Shown: positions 3,662 to 33,089 of the stretch, piece after piece
Layout of the letters: each line of letters starts with the position of its first letter
Numbering within the stretch: the stretch's first letter is position 1
Notes under the pieces: model-generated
The model's database searches: none
What the model was told of the DNA's origin: nothing
The model's input: only the letters and a program-made list of their open reading frames with translations
NCBI RefSeq assembly: GCF_003790525.1
Contig: NZ_CP033635.1
Direction: 5' to 3' (one strand)
DNA length: 64,000 nt
From: Escherichia coli
GTDB taxonomy: Bacteria; Pseudomonadota; Gammaproteobacteria; Enterobacterales; Enterobacteriaceae
Translations under genes and position numbers: made by a program

Positions 3662-5407
3662 TCACTTTTTCGCCAGCTCCTGGTTTAATGTCCAGAGCTC
3701 CAGGCGTTCTTCGTTGCTTAAACCATGCGTGCGCTCACGAGCGATTAACTCTTCCTGGCGCAGTTCAAGCAGCGAATCAAACATATGGTTGAGTGAGTCG
3801 GTGAAGGTTTGCTCAGCAATATTCTTATCTGCTATATCGTCCCACATCGACAGTTTTTCAAGGGTGGCAGCATTATTTGTACCACGATAGTGCTCTAAAA
3901 GTTGCCCGGTGGTCAGACCTGGCTGGGAGAGACAAGTGTTGACCAGTTCTCTGAATAAGCCAAGTCCAGGGAGCTTATTTTCATCCAGATTCTCAAGCGG
4001 CGGGACCAACGTCGCTAATTCTGGATTTTGCACCAGCAACCCTATAAGTATACGCATGGTCGTGCGTTTTAGCTGCGGAACAGGGCGAGAAACGCCGCTC
4101 TCTGCCGCTTTTGGCATTAATCGTTCAAGCTGGCTGTCATCAAGTATGCCTAATTTGTTGCCTAATTCCTGACGAAGATATATTCGCAGCGTTTCGCCCG
4201 GCACTTGCGATATCAATGGCAGTGCCAGCGTACTCAAACGTGCGCGCCCGTCAGGGGTACTCAGATCAACTTGCGGCATCAGACTGTTAAACAGAAATGC
4301 GGAGAGTGGCATCGCCTGCTCCATCCGCGCTTCAAACGCTTCTTTACCTTCTTTTCGTACCAGCGTGTCAGGGTCTTCGCCATCAGGCAAAAACATAAAG
4401 CGTAGCTGACGACCGTCTGTCATGTAAGGCAGCGCCGTTTCCAGCGCTCGCCAGGCGGCATCGCGGCCTGCACGGTCGCCGTCATAACAGCAAATGACAT
4501 TGTTGGTCGCGCGGAACAACAGTTGTATGTGATCGGCAGTGGTTGACGTACCTAACGACGCAACGGCGTAATTAATGCCGTATTGCGCCAGCGCCACCAC
4601 GTCCATATAGCCTTCGACCACAAGCAGACGATTGGGTTCAGCGTTATCCTGCTGCGCTTCATAAAGACCGTAAAGCTGGCGGCCTTTATGGAAAATGTCC
4701 GTTTCCGGCGAGTTCAGGTATTTGGGGGTATCGTTGCCCAGCACGCGTCCGCCAAAACCAATCACCCGACCGCGTTTATCACGAATGGGGAACATCACCC
4801 GCTCGCGGAAACGGTCGTAACTGCGCCCCTGATCGTTAGTGACCAACATGCCCGCATCAATCAATGACTGGCGATTTTCTGGATTGCCGCCAAACCGCTT
4901 CAGGACGTTGTCCCAGCCAGGGGGGGCAAAACCAATCGCAAAGCGGGCGATAACCTCGTGGCTTAATCCGCGTTTTTCCAGATACTGGCGCGCAGACGTG
5001 GCAACAGGTTGCTGTAAAGATTGTTGGTAAAACGTATTCAGACCGTCCATCAACTGATAAAGCGTTTGTCGTTGATGGCGCTCGATCTGGCTGGGGCCGC
5101 TACCTGCTTCAAATGGCACTTCAAGATTGTGCATTGCTGCCAGCTCTTCGACCGTTTCGACGAACTCAAGCTTGTCGTAGTTCATCAGGAAGTCGATCGC
5201 GTTGCCGTGCGCGCCACATCCAAAGCAGTGGTAAAACTGTTTCTCACCGTTAACGGTGAATGATGGGGTTTTCTCGTTGTGGAATGGACAACACGCGTGG
5301 AAATTCTTGCCCTGCTTTTTCAGCTTCACACGGGCATCGATCAGATCGACGATGTCAGTGCGTGCCAGCAGATCATTAATGAATACGCGTGGGATTCGTC
5401 CAGCCAT
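3662..5407 (-). CDS. dnaG: DNA primase
   Basis: 581-aa ORF with the zinc-ribbon CCPFHNEKTPSF...CFGCGAHG and a TOPRIM domain; sits in the rpsU-dnaG-rpoD operon. Confidence 0.97.
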   Translation of the reverse strand: MAGRIPRVFINDLLARTDIVDLIDARVKLKKQGKNFHACCPFHNEKTPSFTVNGEKQFYHCFGCGAHGNAIDFLMNYDKLEFVETVEELAAMHNLEVPFEAGSGPSQIERHQRQTLYQLMDGLNTFYQQSLQQPVATSARQYLEKRGLSHEVIARFAIGFAPPGWDNVLKRFGGNPENRQSLIDAGMLVTNDQGRSYDRFRERVMFPIRDKRGRVIGFGGRVLGNDTPKYLNSPETDIFHKGRQLYGLYEAQQDNAEPNRLLVVEGYMDVVALAQYGINYAVASLGTSTTADHIQLLFRATNNVICCYDGDRAGRDAAWRALETALPYMTDGRQLRFMFLPDGEDPDTLVRKEGKEAFEARMEQAMPLSAFLFNSLMPQVDLSTPDGRARLSTLALPLISQVPGETLRIYLRQELGNKLGILDDSQLERLMPKAAESGVSRPVPQLKRTTMRILIGLLVQNPELATLVPPLENLDENKLPGLGLFRELVNTCLSQPGLTTGQLLEHYRGTNNAATLEKLSMWDDIADKNIAEQTFTDSLNHMFDSLLELRQEELIARERTHGLSNEERLELWTLNQELAKK

Positions 5408-5517
5408 AGGCCCCGATTTTTAGCAATTCATAAACGAAAATAAGCCGCGCATTCCTTTCGGAAGCACGGCCTTACAACTACAACTCGGTCTGATCGGAGA
5501 GCAACGCTCTCGGGGAA

Positions 5518-5772
<255 letters not shown>

Positions 5773-7026: not shown

Positions 7027-8490
7027 TTAAAGCAACACCACGGGCATCCACAGTAAGCCGGTAATCACCAGCAATACGAGGAATATCAGCCCAAAAATTG
7101 CCCCCAGTCGCCAGTAATCCACCGTTGGCAGATAACCACTACCGTAGTAAATCGGGCTGGGTCCGGTGGCGTATGGCGTAAGAATGCTCCCCAGACCAAT
7201 TGCCGCGCCAACCATCAGGCAGAATACCGGCAGCGGGATTTCCGGCATCGCCAGCGCGGCGGCAATCATCATCGGCGCGAGAGCGGAGGTATACGCCGTG
7301 GCGCTGGCGAAAAAGTAGCGCAGTAGATAAAACACCACAATCAACGCCACCATCACTATCGTTGGCGAATAACCGCTTAAGCTGCCTGCTAACAGTTTGC
7401 CAAACCAGCTAATAAAACCGGTGTTGTTGAGTCCGGTAGCGAGGGTGATAAGCGAGGCCAGCCAGAAGAAAACGTTCCACGCGGCTTTATTACTGACAAT
7501 GTCGTCCCAACTGATAATGCGCAGAAGCAGCATCAGCGCCACCACGCTGTAACCGACCATCGCGGCATCGATATAATCACCGCCGAAAATCCACAGCACC
7601 AGCGCGCCTACCATCAGCCCCAGCATCCGTTTTTCACGCGAACAGAGCGGGCCCATTGCCTGCAGTTCCGTCTCTGCCCAGCGCGGCACCTGATCACCAG
7701 ACTTCAGTACCGGCGGGTACAGCACGTAAGCCAGCCAGGGAACCAGCAGAACCAGTAAAATACTGAGCGGCAACATCCCGAGGAACCAGTCGCCCCAACT
7801 CAGTGTGGCGTGAGATGCGCTTTTCATCAGGCCAATTAACAGCAAGTTAGGTGCCATCGCCGTCAGGAAAATGGCGCTGGTCACGCAGTCGGCAACAATC
7901 CCCATCCACATGATGTACGAGCCAATGCTGCGCGAACTGCTGTCGTTTGGTTGTGATTGATAGAGCGGTGGCAGGTTACGGATGATGGGATAGATAATCC
8001 CCGCACCACGCGCCGAGTTGGACGGTGTTACAGGTGCCAGGATAAGCTCGGAGAACATCACCGCATAGCCGAGAAACAGCGTGCGATGCCCCATCTTTTT
8101 CACCAGAATCAGCGCGATACGTCGCCCCAGCCCGGTTTTTTCATAGCCTGTGCCAAACATAAAGGCGGCGAAAATCAGCCAGATAACCGAATTAGAAAAA
8201 CCAGAAACCGCCCAGGAGAGGGATTTGGCGGTGAACTTAAAACCTGGCTGGGCGAGCTGCTCCGGGCTGAACAGCAGCCAGGGAGAGAGAATGGCGATAA
8301 TGGAGATACCCACCATCGCCACCACGGCACCCGGCACGGGTTCGAGGATCAGTCCAACGATCACGCCAGTAAAAACAGCAAAGTAGAGCCAGGTATGACT
8401 CTCCAGCCCTGCGGGAACCGGAATTAGAGCAATAATGGCGATGACCGCCAGCGGCGCAAGGTATCGCCACCATTCAGTGGAAGGTTTCAT
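7027..8490 (-). CDS. ttdT: L-tartrate/succinate antiporter
   Basis: 487-aa polytopic membrane protein (DASS family) immediately downstream of ttdAB. Confidence 0.9.
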   Translation of the reverse strand: MKPSTEWWRYLAPLAVIAIIALIPVPAGLESHTWLYFAVFTGVIVGLILEPVPGAVVAMVGISIIAILSPWLLFSPEQLAQPGFKFTAKSLSWAVSGFSNSVIWLIFAAFMFGTGYEKTGLGRRIALILVKKMGHRTLFLGYAVMFSELILAPVTPSNSARGAGIIYPIIRNLPPLYQSQPNDSSSRSIGSYIMWMGIVADCVTSAIFLTAMAPNLLLIGLMKSASHATLSWGDWFLGMLPLSILLVLLVPWLAYVLYPPVLKSGDQVPRWAETELQAMGPLCSREKRMLGLMVGALVLWIFGGDYIDAAMVGYSVVALMLLLRIISWDDIVSNKAAWNVFFWLASLITLATGLNNTGFISWFGKLLAGSLSGYSPTIVMVALIVVFYLLRYFFASATAYTSALAPMMIAAALAMPEIPLPVFCLMVGAAIGLGSILTPYATGPSPIYYGSGYLPTVDYWRLGAIFGLIFLVLLVITGLLWMPVVLL

Positions 8491-25124: not shown

Positions 25125-25375
25125 GAATCCGCTTATTCTCAGGGCGGGGCGAAATTCCCCACCGGCGGTAAATCAACTCAGTTGAAAGCCCGCGAGCGCT
25201 TTGGGTGCGAACTCAAAGGACAGCAGATCCGGTGTAATTCCGGGGCCGACGGTTAGAGTCCGGATGGGAGAGAGTAACGATTCTGTCGGGCATGGACCCG
25301 CTCACGTTATTTTGGCTATATGCCGCCACTCCTAAGACTGCCCTGATTCTGGTAACCATAATTTTAGTAAGGTTT
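25125..25375 (+). ncRNA. FMN riboswitch (RFN element) in the ribB leader
   Basis: Conserved RFN segments agggcggggcgaaattccccaccggcggta ... ccggggccgacggttagagtccggatgggagaga directly upstream of ribB. Confidence 0.8.
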
Positions 25376-26036: not shown

Positions 26037-26068
26037 AAACCGCTGCTTAATTTACTGCCTTAATCAAG

Positions 26069-26105
26069 AAACCGAAGTTGTAGCAGGCTTCGGTTTTTAT
26101 TTTTC
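26069..26105 (+). terminator. ribB rho-independent terminator
   Basis: gaaaccgaag-(loop)-cttcggttt followed by a T run. Confidence 0.6.
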
Positions 26106-26297
26106 CCTGCTATGCAAGATGTTAATTCCGCTTCTCTTTCTATGAGAAAATTTCATTAATATCAGGCATTCTTTTTCATTATGATCAAAATCATATAATT
26201 GTTCCGTTATTATGCGACCATATGAATATATCCGAAAAAGGATATGTGAAATTTATGCGCTAAATGTTTAGTATTGTTAAATATTAAGGGTAAAAGG

Positions 26298-26468
26298 ATG
26301 TTTATCGCCTGGTACTGGATTGTATTGATTGCTCTTGTTGTTGTGGGTTATTTCCTGCATTTGAAACGTTATTGTCGGGCGTTTCGCCAGGACAGAGACG
26401 CACTGCTTGAAGCGCGGAACAAATACTTAAACAGTACGAGAGAAGAGACAGCCGAAAAGGTAGAATAA
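26298..26468 (+). CDS. Small single-pass membrane protein (56 aa), function unknown
   Basis: ORF MFIAWYWIVLIALVVVGYFLHLKRYCRAFRQDRDALLEARNKYLNSTREETAEKVE with an AAGGG SD about 8 nt upstream. Confidence 0.4.
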   Translation: MFIAWYWIVLIALVVVGYFLHLKRYCRAFRQDRDALLEARNKYLNSTREETAEKVE

Positions 26469-26525
26469 GGCTTTAGTGAAGCTGGCAGAAGTTGTCCATG
26501 CGCTGGACAACTTCTGATGTTGCTT

Positions 26526-27299
26526 TTAACCAATTCCCGCCGTTTGTAGCAGCACTAAACTGAATCCCATCACTGACATTCCACATAGTACGCCATAGCT
26601 GGGGTTATTATTAGGGTCAATCTCTTTGGCGAGCGGCATTAATTCATCAACCGAGAGCGCTACCATAATTCCTGCAACCGCCGCCATGATTGCCGCCATG
26701 ACCACCGGGGAAATCATGCTACCGAGGATTAACCACGCCAGCACACCACCAAGAATTTCTGCCAGTCCAGAAATCCCCGCCCAAAGAATCGCGGTGCGTT
26801 TAGACCCCGTTGCCGCGTAAACCGGGCCTGCAACCGCCAGACCTTCAGGAATATTGTGTAACGCAACGGCCAGTGCGATGCCAAAGCCCAGCTCCAGGTT
26901 GCTGCTCGCCGTGACAAAGGTGGCAATCCCTTCCGGGAAGTTATGCAGACTGATGCCGAGAGTGAGCAGAATGGCTGTGCGCTTGATCGATTTTGGCAAC
27001 GGCTGCACCGATTTTTGCATTAAATCCTGCGGATGCGCATGTGGCAACATGCGGTCCAGGCCAAAATAGCCAAGCAGACCGAAGATAAACATTCCATAAC
27101 CCAACACAGGTGACATTCCTTCGGCGGCTAATGCGGCAGGAAGCATTTCCATTAATGAGATGAGCAACATGATCCCCGCCGCAAATCCTAGCGAAAACGC
27201 CAGTAAGCGGTTCGAGGGTTTTTGCCCGAGAACGCCGAGAAACGCGCCAATAAACGTGGCTGCCCCCGCCAGTATGGTCAGAATGAGAGGTACTGACAT
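26526..27299 (-). CDS. zupT: Zinc transporter, ZIP family
   Basis: 257-aa product starting [22 protein letters not shown]... (track ORF is 14 codons longer). Confidence 0.9.
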
Positions 27300-27414
27300 C
27301 GACAACTCCTTATAAATCTTCACCTTCAGGCAGATCGTCAAAATAACTGATGATCATCATCATTGTTATCCGGGTTCTTACTCCGCCGAACAAGCGTATT
27401 GTGAGGATATCAAA

Positions 27415-28230
27415 ATGACACCTTTAGTTAAGGATATCATCATGTCTTCAACACGTATGCCAGCATTGTTTTTAGGTCACGGTAGTCCGATGAACGTGCT
27501 GGAAGATAATTTGTATACCCGCAGCTGGCAGACGTTGGGGATGACATTGCCACGCCCGCAAGCAATAGTGGTGGTTTCGGCTCACTGGTTTACCCGTGGA
27601 ACAGGAGTGACCGCGATGGAGACGCCGCCCACGATTCATGACTTTGGTGGCTTCCCGCAGGCGCTGTACGATACGCATTATCCTGCTCCGGGTTCACCTG
27701 CGCTGGCACAGCATCTGGTTGAGCTGTTAGCGCCGGTCCCTGTGACGCTGGATAAAGAAGCCTGGGGCTTCGACCACGGCTCGTGGGGCGTACTGATTAA
27801 GATGTATCCTGACGCCGATATCCCGATGGTGCAGTTGAGTATCGACAGTAGCAAACCTGCCGCCTGGCATTTCGAAATGGGGCGCAAACTCGCGGCGCTG
27901 CGTGATGAAGGGATAATGTTGGTCGCCAGTGGCAACGTGGTGCATAACCTGCGTACAGTGAAGTGGCACGGTGATAGTTCACCGTATCCGTGGGCGACGT
28001 CGTTTAATGAGTATGTGAAAGCGAATCTGACGTGGCAAGGGCCGGTGGAACAACATCCTCTGGTGAATTATCTCGACCATGAAGGTGGCGCGTTATCGAA
28101 CCCAACGCCAGAGCACTATCTGCCGTTGTTGTATGTCTTAGGTGCGTGGGATGGGCAGGAGCCAATTACCATTCCGGTCGATGGTATAGAAATGGGCAGT
28201 TTAAGTATGCTGTCGGTGCAGATAGGTTAA
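27415..28230 (+). CDS. ygiD: Extradiol ring-cleavage dioxygenase (4,5-DOPA dioxygenase-like)
   Basis: 271-aa ORF ...LFLGHGSPMNVLEDN...; an alternative start at MSSTRMPAL (27442) is possible. Confidence 0.85.
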   Translation: MTPLVKDIIMSSTRMPALFLGHGSPMNVLEDNLYTRSWQTLGMTLPRPQAIVVVSAHWFTRGTGVTAMETPPTIHDFGGFPQALYDTHYPAPGSPALAQHLVELLAPVPVTLDKEAWGFDHGSWGVLIKMYPDADIPMVQLSIDSSKPAAWHFEMGRKLAALRDEGIMLVASGNVVHNLRTVKWHGDSSPYPWATSFNEYVKANLTWQGPVEQHPLVNYLDHEGGALSNPTPEHYLPLLYVLGAWDGQEPITIPVDGIEMGSLSMLSVQIG

Positions 28231-28237
28231 TAAAAGA

Positions 28238-28266
28238 ACCCGAAGCCAGAATGACTGGCTTCGGGT
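28238..28266. terminator. Bidirectional hairpin terminator between ygiD and dsbI
   Basis: acccgaagccag-aatgac-tggcttcgggt. Confidence 0.5.
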
Positions 28267-28275
28267 GTTGCTGAG

Positions 28276-28947
28276 TTAGCCTCTGATGATTTTAAGTGCC
28301 CATGCGCCACTCATAATGACCAGCAGCACCAGACACATACCAAAAGCCAGCATACAAGCCTGAGCCATATTCATAAAATGCCATGGTGGTAGCAGATACC
28401 AGCCTTCAGATTGCTGATACATTTCCACAAACCACTGTTGCGTGCTGCTCAGTGTGACGCCATCAGGAACGATTGGTGCGTCATAGCCACAATCCCCGGT
28501 AGGCTTGAACCAATTTGGTGCCCACTGTGCCAGCGGCAGGTTAAAGGGAAAAGTTGGATCGGTAGAGCAACCCTGTACGCCAAACAGTGAATCGGGATCC
28601 GGATTATGTACTGCATGGTGGATATCGTTCAGTTTGAGCGAAAACTTCAGTCCCAAAATGCTGCCGTAAAATGCCATCACGCAGCCAATTAGCTTTAGGA
28701 TGATGTTCTTTGGGTTGATCGCTGCAACCAATCCTCCAATAACCATCACAAACATGGCGTAGCGAATGTATACACATTGCTCACAGGGTGCCATGTAGAG
28801 ATAGATCTGGAAGAAAGAGTGCGCCAGGATAATTAACGCGCCCATCGCAACGGCCATTAACAACCACAACAAGCGTTGCTCCTGCCATCTGACCAGTGTG
28901 TCAACTGGTGATGTGCGAAGATCTTTCCACATTCCCTTAATACCCAT
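28276..28947 (-). CDS. dsbI: DsbB-like membrane disulfide oxidoreductase
   Basis: 223-aa polytopic ORF with paired cysteines (CEQC; C...C in the periplasmic loop); last gene of the assT operon. Confidence 0.85.
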
Positions 28948-28961
28948 AGCCTGTTTCCCTG

Positions 28962-29630
28962 TTATTTGCTTGCTAACTCACGGATAAGGTCTGCCATCGC
29001 GTCGATGGATTTGATGCTCTTGGTGTAGATCAAGTACTTACCATTAACGACATAGGCTGGAACCCCCTGGATTTTGGCGACATCATAAGAGGCTTTCCAT
29101 TTTTCCAGTGTTTCTTGAACCGCTGGTTCTTTCAGTGCCGCTTCAAAATCCGCCTGACTCATACCTGCGGCATCCAGACCGGTTTTGATAAAAGCAGCCG
29201 GATCTTTACCGTCAGACCAGCGTTCTTTTTTGTCGTGATAAGCCACGTAGTAGGCAAACTTGGCTTTCTTAAACTGAGAGTTAGCATCAAATAAGGAAAT
29301 GCCTGCTGCTTTATCTTTATTGATCAAGACCGCAAAGACTTCGCTTGCTTGTTTGCCGTATTCACCTTTGGTTTCCAGATGGAACGGCGTGAAAGCAACG
29401 ATATCTTTCACTTTTTCCGATACCGGACCGGTAACCGCTTTGTCGTACTTGTAACAGAACGGGCAGGCGTAGCTGAATACCTTAATCAGCGTTTTGTCTG
29501 CATTCGGAATAGGTTTTTCCAGAACCATGTAATCCGTGCCTTCGGTAAATGCAGAAGCGGTAAATGAAACAGCCAAAGCTGCGGTAAGCAGTATGCTTTT
29601 AAATAGTGATGAGATCCCTAATTTCGACAT
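28962..29630 (-). CDS. dsbL: DsbA-like periplasmic thiol:disulfide oxidoreductase
   Basis: 222-aa ORF with a signal peptide and CPFC active site ([10 protein letters not shown]). Confidence 0.85.
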
Positions 29631-29647
29631 TTTTATTCCCTTCTTAA

Positions 29648-31444
29648 TTATTTGAACATCTGTTGTGGACGGACTAACAATGCACGATAGTGAGTCTGAT
29701 TGGGTTTATCTGACAGCACGTCGATTTCCACTTTCACTTCTTTGGTTTTGTAATCGATTTCGTTCAACTTACCGACGGTTGGCTGCCCGACATCGAACAA
29801 ATGAATAGAACCACCGAAGCCAAACATGGTGTTACGGTCGGCTTGATATTCAATGATGGAGGTGATTGGGCTATAGAAATCGTAGCCACGTTCTTTACCG
29901 TATTCCCACACTTGCTGAACGGTGCCTTTCTTCTCATCAATCTTATATTCCACAAAGCGGGAATATTTCATGGTTGGTAAGGCAGGTTGTTCCAGATGAC
30001 GACCATCGCCATTATCAAAAATGGTGAGCGTTCCTTTGCTGGAAATCCAGGCGGTATGCTGGGTGTAGGTAAAGTCGAAGTCTGAGTTTTCGCACAGGCC
30101 ATTTTCGTTACAGGTAATTGGCTTACCGTTAGCATCAACCGGTTTCAGCAGCTTGCTGGCCAGCGGTTTTTCCCAACCTTTAGAGGGTGCAAGGATCCAT
30201 TTCACTTGCTTATCACGACCAATCTTCACAACACCCTGGTGACGAGAAGAGAGAATAATTGAGTCATCTTTTGCGTCATAAGCGATGGAATTAACGTGCG
30301 CCCAGTTACGGCCTGGCCCTACACCCAGAGCGTCGCCGAACGGTGTATCTGGTTCCAGTTTTGCCTGTTGTCCTGCATGGGCAAGGTCAACGTTAACGCA
30401 AACTGCACCTGCATCCAGCGCGCCGAGCAGTGCATCGCGTTTCGGATCGAGGATCTTCGTCAGATCCCATACATCTACAACGCGACCAGATTTATCGACT
30501 TCGAGGATATGGTCACGAATGGTGGTGACGTGTACGCCGTCATCGCGACGATAGTTACTCTTACCTACGCGCAACAGTACCGTGCCATTTGGCGTCTCAA
30601 TGGATTCATGAGTAGCGTCAGCAAATCCGCGCGGTAGTTTGTGATCTTCGAGCACCTGCCCCATCATGTCGAACTCGTACCAGTGCTGACCTTGTACAGC
30701 GGTAAAGGTGCCGCGTGGCGTTTCGCGGATACCCATCAGATAACCACGTTTGTTAATGTTGCGGTCACGACCATCGTAGAAGGTGTTTTGATCCAACCAC
30801 CAGCGGTATTCGCCTTCCGTATCGACGATAAAGGTGAATGGCGCGATATCAAAAGGGAGTGCGCCAGTTGCCGGACCCGCATCAAGGATACCGGCATTTT
30901 TATCTTTCTCACCATGCCAGTGGAGATCGGAACCTTGGGCGGTAAAGGTGTGGGTATTAACCAGATAGAGGCGATCTTCAAAACCCGGTGCGACTTTAAT
31001 AACTTTGGTCTGTTGTAAATCGGAGATAGAGCGGTTATCCATGTAATTATTGACGATGGCCGAAGTGTGCACCACATAATCATCTTTCATGACCTTGCCG
31101 TTTTCTTTCCACTCAACGGTCACTTTGTTAGCAAATTTCTGATAAAGACCAAAAATCGGTACACCATCGTAAGTTTTTAGTGATTCCTGACCCACGGGAT
31201 AGCTGATTTCTACGCCTTTTTCGCCCTTCCCATGGACGGTAACTCTGACGTCAGAAATAACATGGCTATCTAAGTCAACCAAAGCGGTCAGTGGTGCATT
31301 GCCGTAGGGATCGACAATGACCGCACCCAGTTGCCCGGCAGGCGGCGCTGGTTTAAAACCCGCAGCCATCACCCCCGATGCTGACAAACCCAGGGTTATC
31401 GCCACAGTTCCGGCTACGAGTGTTTTTCTATATTTATCAAACAT
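29648..31444 (-). CDS. assT: Periplasmic arylsulfate sulfotransferase
   Basis: 598-aa ORF with a signal peptide; recognised as AssT by family resemblance and by the dsbL-dsbI partners. Confidence 0.88.
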   Translation of the reverse strand: MFDKYRKTLVAGTVAITLGLSASGVMAAGFKPAPPAGQLGAVIVDPYGNAPLTALVDLDSHVISDVRVTVHGKGEKGVEISYPVGQESLKTYDGVPIFGLYQKFANKVTVEWKENGKVMKDDYVVHTSAIVNNYMDNRSISDLQQTKVIKVAPGFEDRLYLVNTHTFTAQGSDLHWHGEKDKNAGILDAGPATGALPFDIAPFTFIVDTEGEYRWWLDQNTFYDGRDRNINKRGYLMGIRETPRGTFTAVQGQHWYEFDMMGQVLEDHKLPRGFADATHESIETPNGTVLLRVGKSNYRRDDGVHVTTIRDHILEVDKSGRVVDVWDLTKILDPKRDALLGALDAGAVCVNVDLAHAGQQAKLEPDTPFGDALGVGPGRNWAHVNSIAYDAKDDSIILSSRHQGVVKIGRDKQVKWILAPSKGWEKPLASKLLKPVDANGKPITCNENGLCENSDFDFTYTQHTAWISSKGTLTIFDNGDGRHLEQPALPTMKYSRFVEYKIDEKKGTVQQVWEYGKERGYDFYSPITSIIEYQADRNTMFGFGGSIHLFDVGQPTVGKLNEIDYKTKEVKVEIDVLSDKPNQTHYRALLVRPQQMFK

Positions 31445-31894
31445 GGATATATCTCCTTATATAACGCAAATATATAATAATGATGAATATCGACTGTTGA
31501 GAGGGTGCTAATAAATTCGTTACGTGAATATGAATATTAATTCAATAAAGAGTGAGAATGCTTTTGTGTTTCTTTTAAATATGTTGTTATTCGGTGAAAC
31601 AAATATTTATGTTTAATGGATAGTAGGGGGGCAATATATCAATCACAATGTTCAATACTGTGTAGTGTGATCCCTGCAACATTGTTTTTTAATTATTAAA
31701 TTTAAATCTGGTGAGATAAAAGTAAAGTATTTAAATAATATCAAATAGTTATGTTGTGATGTATTCACTTACTTTAATTACAATATCGCTTGCATATGAC
31801 GATTTAACATTAAATTGAGTATTAATGTTAAATAAAGGTTGGATATGTATGTGTTTATATATTGATGGGAATTATGAATGGTGGATTATAAGAG
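31445..31894 (-). promoter_or_regulatory. AT-rich upstream/promoter region of the assT operon
   Basis: About 450 bp of strongly AT-rich non-coding DNA with no ORF of 60 codons or more; typical of a horizontally acquired, nucleoid-protein-silenced promoter. Confidence 0.4.
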
Positions 31895-31917
31895 ATTGCC
31901 CCGCTTATCGGGGCAAT
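31895..31917 (-). terminator. Hairpin downstream of ygiC (possible terminator, weak U tract)
   Basis: attgccccg-cttat-cggggcaat perfect stem. Confidence 0.4.
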
Positions 31918-31928
31918 ATTAAGCTGTA

Positions 31929-33089
31929 TTACTCAACAAAAATATGCGGATAAAACCGAGACATATCCTGGGTGATCAATGCACGGTCTTCACGAATGCC
32001 AATTCCGGCAGGTTGATCGTTCACCAGCCAGCTACCAATCAGCATATAGCTGTCGCCGAATTTCGGTAACGGGTGGAATTGCTGAACAATCATCCCTTCT
32101 TCGCCATACGGACCTTCCGCTGCTTCAATGGTTTTGCCGTTCTCAATGATCGACACGTTTGCGCCTTCACGGGAGAAGATCGGTTTAACCACATATTTTT
32201 CCATTTGCGGATGATCATCTTCCGCAAAATAAGCGGGCAGCAGGTTCGGGTGATTCGGGAACATCTCCCACAGTAGCGGTAGAAGCGCTTTGTTGGAGAT
32301 AATGCTCTTCCACGCCGGTTCCAGCCAGCGTACGCCTGCATCCTCCAGCTTGGTGGAGAACATCTCACGCAACATAAATTCCCACGGATACAGCTTGAAC
32401 AGGTTGGAAATCACCTGATCCTGTAAATCCGTGAACTGACCTTTTTCACCTAACCCGATATCGTCGATGTAGAGGAACTCGGTAGCGATTTCAGCTTCCG
32501 TCGCGCAGTCCTGCAAATACTGAATGGTTCCGCGATCTTCCACCGTGTCGCGACAGCAGGTGAGATGCAGCAACTGGAAGCCATACTGTTCACGCAGCTC
32601 AACGAAGCGATCGATCAGCTTTTCTTGCAAACTGTTAAACTGGTCGCTGCCCTCCGGCAAGTTACCGGCGTTAAGCTGATCTTCCAGCCAGATCCACTGA
32701 AAGAACGCCGCCTCGTATAGTGACGTTGGCGTATCGGCGTTATTTTCCAGAAGCTTAGGTTCGCCAGTGCCATCCCACGCCAGATCAAGACGCGAATAAA
32801 GCGATGGCTGGTGCGTCAGCCATGACTGGCGCACAAAACTCCAGGTGTGTTTTGGTATGCGGAATTTGGTCATCAGCTCATCGCTGGCGATCACTTTTTC
32901 CACCACTTTCAGGCACATCTGGTGCAGTTCGGCGGTGACTTCTTCCAGCTTTTCAACCTGAGCGAGGGTCAACTTGTAGTAAGCATCTTCACACCAGTAC
33001 GGCTCGCCGTACATGGTGTGAAAATTGAAACCGTATTCGTGGGCTTTTTCGCGCCAGTCCGGGCGCTCGGTAATACTGACTCTTTCCAT
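31929..33089 (-). CDS. ygiC: Glutathionylspermidine-synthase-like ATP-grasp protein
   Basis: 386-aa [35 protein letters not shown]... Confidence 0.9.

Follow-up and report, generated by a model that had tools for sequence, protein, structure and literature searches.

The AT-rich DNA between ygiC and assT in this Escherichia coli genome is a control region that is real and functional, though of an ordinary type, and it is the counterpart of the Salmonella promoter region that is already known to be under H-NS/LeuO control. We regard it as probable that it controls the transcription of the accessory assT-dsbL-dsbI operon, with the anatomy and the interplay of H-NS, LeuO and an activator that are proposed here. 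The operon is a marker of extraintestinal pathogenic E. coli and serves as a reporter substrate in DsbA-inhibitor screens. The chromosomal assT gene is silent in the laboratory. Two natural alleles, a predicted start and candidates for the activator site and the LeuO dyads now make up an explicit map, by which the trigger of the operon becomes directly testable. No study of the E. coli assT promoter was found in the literature searched.

In the direction of assT, the region would consist of a hairpin, a G-poor tract, a leftover of the DNA upstream of yqiD, a promoter module, a leader of about 169 nt and the ribosome-binding site. The hairpin would end the tolC-ygiB-ygiC transcript, and the G-poor tract may load Rho on read-through RNA. 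The promoter module would comprise TTGTGA, a spacer of 17 bp and TACTAT, preceded by a CRP-like site at a distance of about 61 bp from the predicted start. The leader would be unstructured and AT-rich and would carry two LeuO-like dyads. A TpA-rich tract of 480 bp (27–28% G+C) would be coated by H-NS (and StpA), so that the operon is off in laboratory culture. LeuO acting in the leader and an activator at the upstream site, for which CRP is the leading guess, would lift the silencing, e.g., in minimal medium or urine.

Composition, genomic setting and origin of the region

The window, i.e., the whole stretch of DNA that was analysed, comprises 64,000 nt (64 kb). An earlier note on this DNA had described 450 bp (31445–31894) as strongly AT-rich compared to the surroundings, as lying upstream of assT and as lacking any ORF of 60 codons or more, and all three statements were confirmed. 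A sliding G+C profile gave 26.7% G+C for the block, about 4.9 sd below the mean of the 450-bp stretches of the window (50.8%, sd 5.0). The 450-bp minimum of the whole 64 kb begins at 31423 (25.8%), and there was no second locus with less than 33%. The longest internal ORFs had 42, 38, 31 and 30 codons. A 64-codon ORF on the plus strand (31317–31511) covers the first 67 bases of the block and lies mostly antisense within assT. Gene calls were taken from the RefSeq annotation of the identical E. coli locus and shifted to window coordinates; they place AssT, DsbL and DsbI on the minus strand. The whole ygiC-assT gap of 484 bp forms the natural unit; it is slightly wider than the 450 bp noted before and is limited by the assT start codon at 31444 and the ygiC stop codon at 31929. 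The region and its neighbours are:

31445..31928, minus strand: whole ygiC-assT intergenic region, 484 bp, 28.1% G+C, right end of the 3698-bp insertion 28231–31928
29648..31444, minus strand: assT (aryl-sulfate sulfotransferase, 598 aa), first gene downstream of the region
28962–29630, minus strand: dsbL, after assT
28276–28947, minus strand: dsbI, after dsbL
31929–33089, minus strand: ygiC, then ygiB and tolC, both also on the minus strand
beyond dsbI, plus strand: ygiD (RefSeq annotation)

The assT gene is thus co-directional with tolC-ygiB-ygiC. The intergenic region is 100% identical to that of strain SC516 and 99.6% identical to that of ST131 and avian pathogenic strains.

In E. coli K-12, the convergent genes ygiC and ygiD are separated by 37 bp with one hairpin. 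Alignment to K-12 showed that homology ends exactly at the stop codons of ygiC and ygiD, so that 3698 bp (28231–31928) stand in place of these 37 bp. The two ends of the insertion carry a different, unrelated hairpin each, and no shared repeat was seen at the borders by inspection. The insertion consists of the three genes assT-dsbL-dsbI; neither a mobility gene nor a regulator gene is among them. The site was matched in 5425 of the 5426 complete E. coli genomes, with a clean split into empty and filled sites: the AT-rich region was present in 1508 genomes (28%) and the 37-bp junction of the K-12 type in 3917. The three inserted genes themselves show only a mild AT-richness (assT 48.6%, dsbL 44.8%, dsbI 48.2% G+C), which means that the extreme composition is a property of the control region and not of the whole insertion. 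The earlier assumption of horizontal acquisition was therefore supported only in part. The patchy distribution with an intact empty site speaks for it, whereas the G+C content of the genes (44.8–48.6%), the lack of mobility genes and a shared neighbourhood in four genera speak against it. Escherichia, Pseudocitrobacter, Citrobacter and Salmonella all have the assT cluster within one and the same neighbourhood of 5 kb.

A scan for AssT with one genome per species yielded 23 enterobacterial loci. At all 23 loci the 450 bp upstream of assT had 23–40% G+C, compared to 46–57% for the gene, and AT-rich DNA upstream of assT was common to three families and to three genomic contexts. In Escherichia species and Pseudocitrobacter, ygiC is followed by assT, and Pseudocitrobacter has a yqiD-like gene (56% identical) between the two. 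Salmonella, Citrobacter and Intestinirhabdus show the order ygiC, ygiD, zupT, yqiD (divergent) and assT, with ribB beyond dsbI. In Budviciaceae and Edwardsiella, gltD and a divergent gene for a LysR-type regulator precede assT.

One segment of the E. coli region connects it to the second of these contexts:

31801..31838, plus strand: segment of about 40 bp homologous to the DNA immediately upstream of yqiD (alignment and cross-genus alignment)

The homology was seen with Salmonella, Citrobacter and also with E. coli's own yqiD. No significant match to YqiD was found by tblastn in the Escherichia region, so that a remnant of YqiD-like coding sequence was not detectable there. The block is probably a former divergent yqiD-assT intergenic region, which reached the ygiC/ygiD gap of some Escherichia lineages together with the operon. 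A relocation of old divergent yqiD-assT intergenic DNA together with the operon would be the simplest history.

The conserved promoter block and its candidate activator site

The earlier note had expected regulatory binding sites in the AT-rich block, and conserved candidate sites were indeed found by cross-genus alignment. The features on the promoter side of the region are:

31619..31688, minus strand: cross-genus block AAAACAATGTyG-nnnn-GATCACACT-...-ATTGTk-N17-TACTATC, 70 bp with fixed internal spacing
31666..31681, minus strand: CRP-like site TGTTG-N6-TCACA, centre at 31673/31674, about −60.5 to −61.5 from the predicted start
31643..31648, minus strand: predicted −35 element TTGTGA, kept as TTGTnn across genera
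31620..31625, minus strand: predicted −10 element TACTAT, near-invariant in 15 sequences, behind a 17-bp spacer of constant length
31453..31458, minus strand: Shine-Dalgarno sequence AAGGAG of assT, part of a proximal stretch in which the two E. coli alleles have 100% identity and which other genera conserve as well

The 70-bp block is kept in Escherichia, Pseudocitrobacter, Citrobacter, Salmonella enterica (arizonae type) and Intestinirhabdus. The block lies 188–229 nt from the ATG of assT, with about 150 nt more where a repeat element has been inserted. The column entropy by codon position was 0.74/0.67/0.76. Since there was no three-base periodicity, we took the block for a signal in the DNA itself rather than for a small gene.

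On the assT strand, TTGTGA-17-TACTAT came out as the best sigma-70-like pair (9.35 versus 6.98 for the next pair) when a composition-corrected scan was made with a matrix of base frequencies; these scores are heuristic. A scan with a 9-of-12 rule overlooks this conserved pair, which matches at 8 of 12 positions; it gave a single promoter-like site, on the plus strand, and no terminator, which is fewer than in shuffled sequences. From the position of the pair, transcription is predicted to start near 31612–31614, which would result in a leader of about 169 nt. Other promoter types were also considered. A proximal sigma-70 promoter at −46 to −15 was rejected for lack of a convincing −35/−10 pair, and readings of the block as a sigma-54 promoter, a sigma-32 promoter or a TyrR box were rejected by eye, because required bases vary in Citrobacter or Salmonella.

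The half-sites of the CRP-like site are conserved while its central bases vary across genera, a pattern that fits a site for a dimer. The right half, GATCACA, is a perfect match to the extended CRP half-site. The left half is conserved as TGTyG and is never TGTGA, and AACAATGTyG is fixed in 15 sequences. The site matches 8 of the 10 core bases. Such matches were no commoner than expected by chance in the window (18 versus 27 expected), and a sequence match alone was therefore rejected as evidence for CRP. The region resembles class I CRP promoters (lac type, site at −61.5) in its conserved halves, its variable centre and the predicted position of this centre, about −60.5 to −61.5 from the predicted start. 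It departs from them by a left half that reads TGTyG in all species, by a match no better than chance and by a start that is a predicted one. No paper that links assT to CRP was found in the literature searched. Because the match is at chance level and the left half never takes the consensus form, we hold the chance that CRP is the protein at the conserved upstream site to be roughly one in three.

The block could instead be bound by a dedicated or other regulator and respond to a specific signal, e.g., a phenolic substrate, and not to cAMP. We consider this possible but less likely than not. A left half that is fixed over 15 sequences without drift to the CRP consensus would be in line with such a regulator, as would the chance-level match to the CRP pattern, and the divergent LysR-type regulator next to assT in Budviciaceae and Edwardsiella demonstrates that dedicated control exists in the wider family. 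However, the E. coli insertion brings no regulator gene with it, and both the perfect right half and the class I geometry point to CRP.

LeuO-like sites and the possible role of H-NS

The LeuO core at the cas promoter is a 19-bp palindrome with two 7-bp halves and a 5-bp gap, and a near-identical copy is present at leuO (Fragel et al. 2019, PMC6698644). We recovered the core ATATTCA-N5-TGAATAT by a search for a palindrome shared by the cas3-casA and leuL-leuO gaps of K-12, where ATATTCA-TACTG-TGAATAT and ATATTGA-TTTGG-TGAATAT were found. Two dyads in the assT leader resemble this core:

31531–31513, minus strand: LeuO-like dyad ATATTCA-CGTAA-CGAATTT, 12/14 matches to the LeuO core
31472..31490, minus strand: LeuO-like dyad ATATTCA-TCATT-ATTATAT, 11/14 matches to the LeuO core, at −46 from the ATG

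Two overlapping ATATTCA half-sites lie within 31513..31537 (minus strand). Altogether, the leader contains three exact ATATTCA half-sites, while 0.31 were expected from composition-matched shuffles (P = 0.008). For the best dyad score, P was about 0.02–0.04 in the allele of the window and 0.2 in other alleles. Across Escherichia and several Citrobacter, the dyad at −46 stays in place and retains both halves around variable central bases; in Salmonella arizonae the dyad is weak (9/14). Taken together, the half-sites and dyads are suggestive of LeuO binding but are not proof of it.

Like the LeuO/H-NS-controlled promoters of the cas operon and of leuO in K-12 (PMC6698644), the assT region is AT-rich, silent in the laboratory and equipped with candidate dyads of the ATATTCA-N5-TGAATAT type. 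In contrast to the cas and leuO promoters, neither candidate dyad at assT is a full palindrome, and both are located downstream and not upstream of the predicted start.

The closest known system is the assT-dsbL-dsbI operon of Salmonella Typhi (PMC4264507), to which the E. coli operon is orthologous, with the same gene order and an AT-rich upstream region. For this operon, that review, citing Gallego-Hernandez et al. 2012, describes repression by H-NS and activation by LeuO in dependence on growth conditions. The Salmonella sequences in our comparison were of the arizonae type only and not of serovar Typhi: AssT is 86% identical to the protein of Salmonella enterica (arizonae type), and the core and proximal blocks align to the Salmonella enterica loci L012 and L056–L058. 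Several features differ between the two genera. The cluster is located between ygiC and ygiD in E. coli, but between yqiD and ribB in Salmonella, with yqiD divergent to assT. The distal half of the E. coli region could not be aligned except for the short yqiD-upstream segment, and Salmonella arizonae has weaker LeuO-like dyads than E. coli.

H-NS prefers TpA-rich, flexible DNA, as known from protein-binding-array work. TpA steps accounted for 13.4% of the dinucleotides in the region, compared to 4.5% in the window. The high-affinity 10-mer of H-NS was not enriched in the region (7 matches versus 11.7 expected from composition). Only 4 A-tracts of at least 4 bases were present, while 10.2 ± 2.8 were expected, and no phasing with 10–11 bp was seen; since A-tracts are depleted and unphased, a curvature plot would probably be flat. 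The sequence signs of H-NS preference were hence limited to extreme AT and TpA richness. The earlier note had taken the block for an H-NS/StpA-silenced promoter by its look. The part concerning a promoter and regulatory region of an accessory operon with conserved candidate sites held up, while H-NS motif enrichment and phased A-tracts were absent.

Chromosomal assT of uropathogenic E. coli (UPEC) is not expressed under standard conditions and has been reported as up-regulated in the urine of infected mice (PMC7810732). No paper that links E. coli assT to H-NS was found in the literature searched. From the composition, the silence of UPEC assT in the laboratory and the H-NS/LeuO control in Salmonella Typhi, we infer that silencing of the E. 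coli region by H-NS is plausible. Short and long H-NS regions have been distinguished (Kahramanoglou et al., PMC3064808). As the AT-rich tract is short and the genes have 45–49% G+C, any H-NS region at this locus is expected to be a short, promoter-centred one and not a long silencing filament.

An unlikely, though by no means negligible, explanation would be that the AT-richness is passive, i.e., that non-coding DNA decays here under AT-biased mutation, that only the block of about 70 bp and the ribosome-binding region are functional and that H-NS has no special role. Between the two E. coli alleles, identity is just 70–77% per 100 bp outside the blocks, with indels, the distal part is probably a decayed yqiD flank, and the missing enrichment of the H-NS motif would also be compatible with passive decay. 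Decay does not easily account for the maintenance of AT-rich DNA upstream of assT over three families and three genomic contexts, nor for the reported H-NS repression of the Salmonella ortholog (PMC4264507). It is also at variance with the rate of evolution. Between Escherichia species the distance in the region and the synonymous distance of assT were 0.18 versus 0.49, 0.24 versus 0.41 and 0.49 versus 1.12. The whole region thus evolves at about 0.4–0.6 of the synonymous rate, which indicates overall constraint.

The ygiC side of the region and the two alleles of E. coli

The half of the region next to ygiC contains the following features:

31895..31917, minus strand: hairpin AUUGCCCCG-AUAAG-CGGGGCAAU, directly after the ygiC stop codon
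31795..31894, minus strand: G-poor, C-containing tract, 23 C versus 2 G in 100 nt on the assT-sense strand
31857..31865, plus strand: invariant ATATATTGA (TCAATATAT on the assT strand), identical in all six Escherichia alleles
31802–31813 and 31822–31833, plus strand: 12-bp inverted repeat ATTTAACATTAA / TTAATGTTAAAT, inside the yqiD-upstream homology

The hairpin at 31895–31917 showed clear covariation among the six Escherichia alleles: four of its nine pairs change on both sides, and 98% of the cells of the alignment are paired. The loop differs between E. coli alleles. A canonical U-run is missing, and the terminator scan did not call the hairpin. The covariation suggests that it is probably the terminator of ygiC or a stabiliser of the 3' end. 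We discarded the idea that the 12-bp AU repeat forms a hairpin in RNA or DNA. It had no compensatory changes, 10 of its 12 pairs vary only by breaking, and only the left arm is conserved.

The tract behind the hairpin keeps its skew in all six Escherichia alleles (21–25 C versus 2–5 G) despite sequence divergence. Rho favours such a rut-like composition with C in excess of G. The tract may therefore load Rho and stop read-through from tolC-ygiB-ygiC, as far as composition can indicate this. The skew could equally be explained as a legacy of the decayed yqiD flank.

These features raise the question of whether the region is mainly a termination or insulation zone for the tolC-ygiB-ygiC transcript, with assT expressed largely by regulated read-through and not from a promoter of its own. 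We regard this as quite improbable. The co-directionality of all genes, a hairpin that has no U-run and did not register in the scan for intrinsic terminators, and the skewed tract that follows it in every Escherichia allele would fit such an arrangement. However, the same promoter block is present in Salmonella and Citrobacter, where the upstream neighbour yqiD is divergent and read-through from upstream is impossible, and the skew itself may have been inherited from the decayed coding strand of yqiD.

Finally, it is very improbable that the region encodes an unannotated small RNA, as the earlier note had suggested, or a small protein. Rfam at permissive E-values gave only sub-threshold chance matches over the region and nothing near the threshold, and no terminator was found besides the ygiC hairpin. 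Neither the leader (z = −0.18) nor the whole plus strand (z = −0.44) folded better than shuffled sequences. The distal half did so (z = −3.9), but this excess is due to the ygiC hairpin and the 12-bp AU repeat, the right arm of which decays in relatives without compensation. On the plus strand, the promoter-like pair GTGATG-17-TACAAT (31756–31784) ranked second of all pairs by score, and four alleles retain its T-A-...-T positions; antisense transcription from this pair is conceivable. None of the internal small ORFs was conserved among the Escherichia alleles. A 31-codon ORF over the conserved block (31682–31587, minus strand) was rejected, because its length varies between 19 and 31 codons, its ATG is lost in one Citrobacter and it has no excess of third-position changes. 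A 42-codon ORF on the plus strand is missing from most alleles. A 22-codon ORF on the plus strand (31443–31511), antisense to the assT start, is conserved only through the underlying conserved DNA.

The region occurs in E. coli as two alleles that are about 21% diverged and lie between near-identical flanks. Identity per 100 bp was 70–85% in the region, with islands of near identity inside, and 96–100% in the flanks. The second allele was found in 262 genomes, with strain ECSC054 as an example of its carriers, and is about 79% identical to that of the window. The two alleles differ at the −10 element (TACTAT/TAGTAT), the −35 element (TTGTGA/TTGTTA), the CRP-like half (TGTTG/TGTCG) and the dyad at −87 (12 versus 9 of 14 matches). 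This pair is the exception among the rates given above: the distance was 0.261 in the region, but only 0.140 for dS of assT and 0.124 for dS of ygiC. The region of the second allele is closer to that of E. whittamii (0.124). The distances would fit a swap of the control region by recombination with a sharp breakpoint at the ygiC stop codon.

A more far-reaching scenario is tentative and, as a whole, rather unlikely. The assT promoter would be an old portable module, consisting of a CRP-type site, TTGTnn, 17 bp and TACTAT together with a LeuO-responsive leader, that moved with the divergent yqiD-assT region between sites about 2 kb apart. The control of assT by LeuO in Enterobacteriaceae would descend from a dedicated LeuO-like LysR regulator that Budviciaceae and Edwardsiella still carry divergently next to assT. 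The two E. coli alleles, which differ at the −10 and −35 elements, the CRP-like half and the upstream LeuO-like dyad, would confer lineage-specific expression on a putatively urovirulence-associated operon.

Alternative intergenic alleles between conserved E. coli genes were reportedly described as 'regulatory switching' by Oren et al. in 2014. The assT region is similar in having two alleles of about 21% divergence between flanks of 96–100% identity, and divergence sets in abruptly at the ygiC stop codon. It differs in that its alleles are homologous to each other and have the core promoter and the proximal blocks in common, which corresponds to divergence and recombination and not to replacement by unrelated DNA.

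Alleles and mosaic structure of the E. coli cluster

The ygiC-assT intergenic region occurs as two alleles in E. coli, that of the window (allele 1, window 31445-31928) and a diverged version (allele 2, 8001-8484 of the retrieved locus L002). At least 95% identity to the window was found in 1246 genomes, and an identity of about 79% in 262 genomes. Both alleles are flanked by DNA that is 96-100% identical, and the boundary is abrupt and coincides with the stop codon of ygiC. The corresponding region of E. whittamii is nearer to allele 2 than allele 1 is. Brief patches of only 86-91% identity, within surroundings of 97-100%, were also seen in dsbI/dsbL and assT when L002 was compared with L001, the RefSeq locus identical to that of the window:

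locus 5401-5700 (window about 28845-29144), low-identity patch in dsbI/dsbL
locus 7301-7400 (window about 30745-30844), low-identity patch in assT

This mosaic pattern suggests repeated recombination inside the assT-dsbL-dsbI insertion.

The predicted -10 element of assT is directly preceded by a C (CTACTAT, window 31620-31626), which is retained in the orthologues of most species. A C at -13 is linked with dependence on sigma-S, so the assT promoter could conceivably be under stationary-phase control.

Position of the cluster and the ribB-yqiD gap

Comparison of window positions 26298-31928 with the Salmonella and Citrobacter loci (L012, L056-L058, L009-L015) revealed two distinct sites of the assT-dsbL-dsbI cluster within one shared neighbourhood. 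Escherichia and Pseudocitrobacter carry the cluster between ygiC and ygiD; Salmonella and Citrobacter carry it between yqiD and ribB, and there assT and yqiD are divergent. The ribB-yqiD gap of the window (26037-26297), the location of the cluster in Salmonella, ranks second in AT-richness near the intergenic region (G+C 28.5% at 26100-26299). The FNR/CRP-like palindrome TATGATCAAAATCATA is present at window 26180-26195, upstream of the actual yqiD of E. coli. Salmonella and Citrobacter retain this palindrome between yqiD and assT as ATATGAT-N4-ATCATAT, and it is absent from the assT region of E. coli. An FMN riboswitch is annotated 5' of ribB (window about 25131-25279, from L001 1687-1835).

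The assT leader and a divergent LysR-type regulator in relatives

In Citrobacter amalonaticus and Intestinirhabdus, about 150 bp of GC-rich DNA are inserted in the leader of assT, which we take to resemble an ERIC repeat; the conserved promoter block remains upstream of it.

L013, about 3790-3930, GC-rich leader insertion
L020, about 3845-3975, GC-rich leader insertion

Limnobaculum and Edwardsiella share a conserved TTCCCCTTTTGGGA element in the leader of assT, about 60-90 nt upstream of the gene (L016, L019, L021, L022, L052).

The divergent neighbour of assT in Budviciaceae and Edwardsiella is a LysR-type regulator gene:

L016, 2605-3630, minus strand, LysR-type regulator
L017, 2595-3548, minus strand, LysR-type regulator
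L018, 2494-3477, minus strand, LysR-type regulator
L019, 2632-3621, minus strand, LysR-type regulator

Its top named matches were BsrA and LeuO, and its score against the LeuO model was 95-105 bits, under the cut-off of that model. This gene could represent the ancestral dedicated regulator from which LeuO control of assT stems. Its start is adjoined by the palindrome TTATCTCT-N4-AGAGATAA, the motif CCTACTATC and a cGTGA-N6-TCAAA site.
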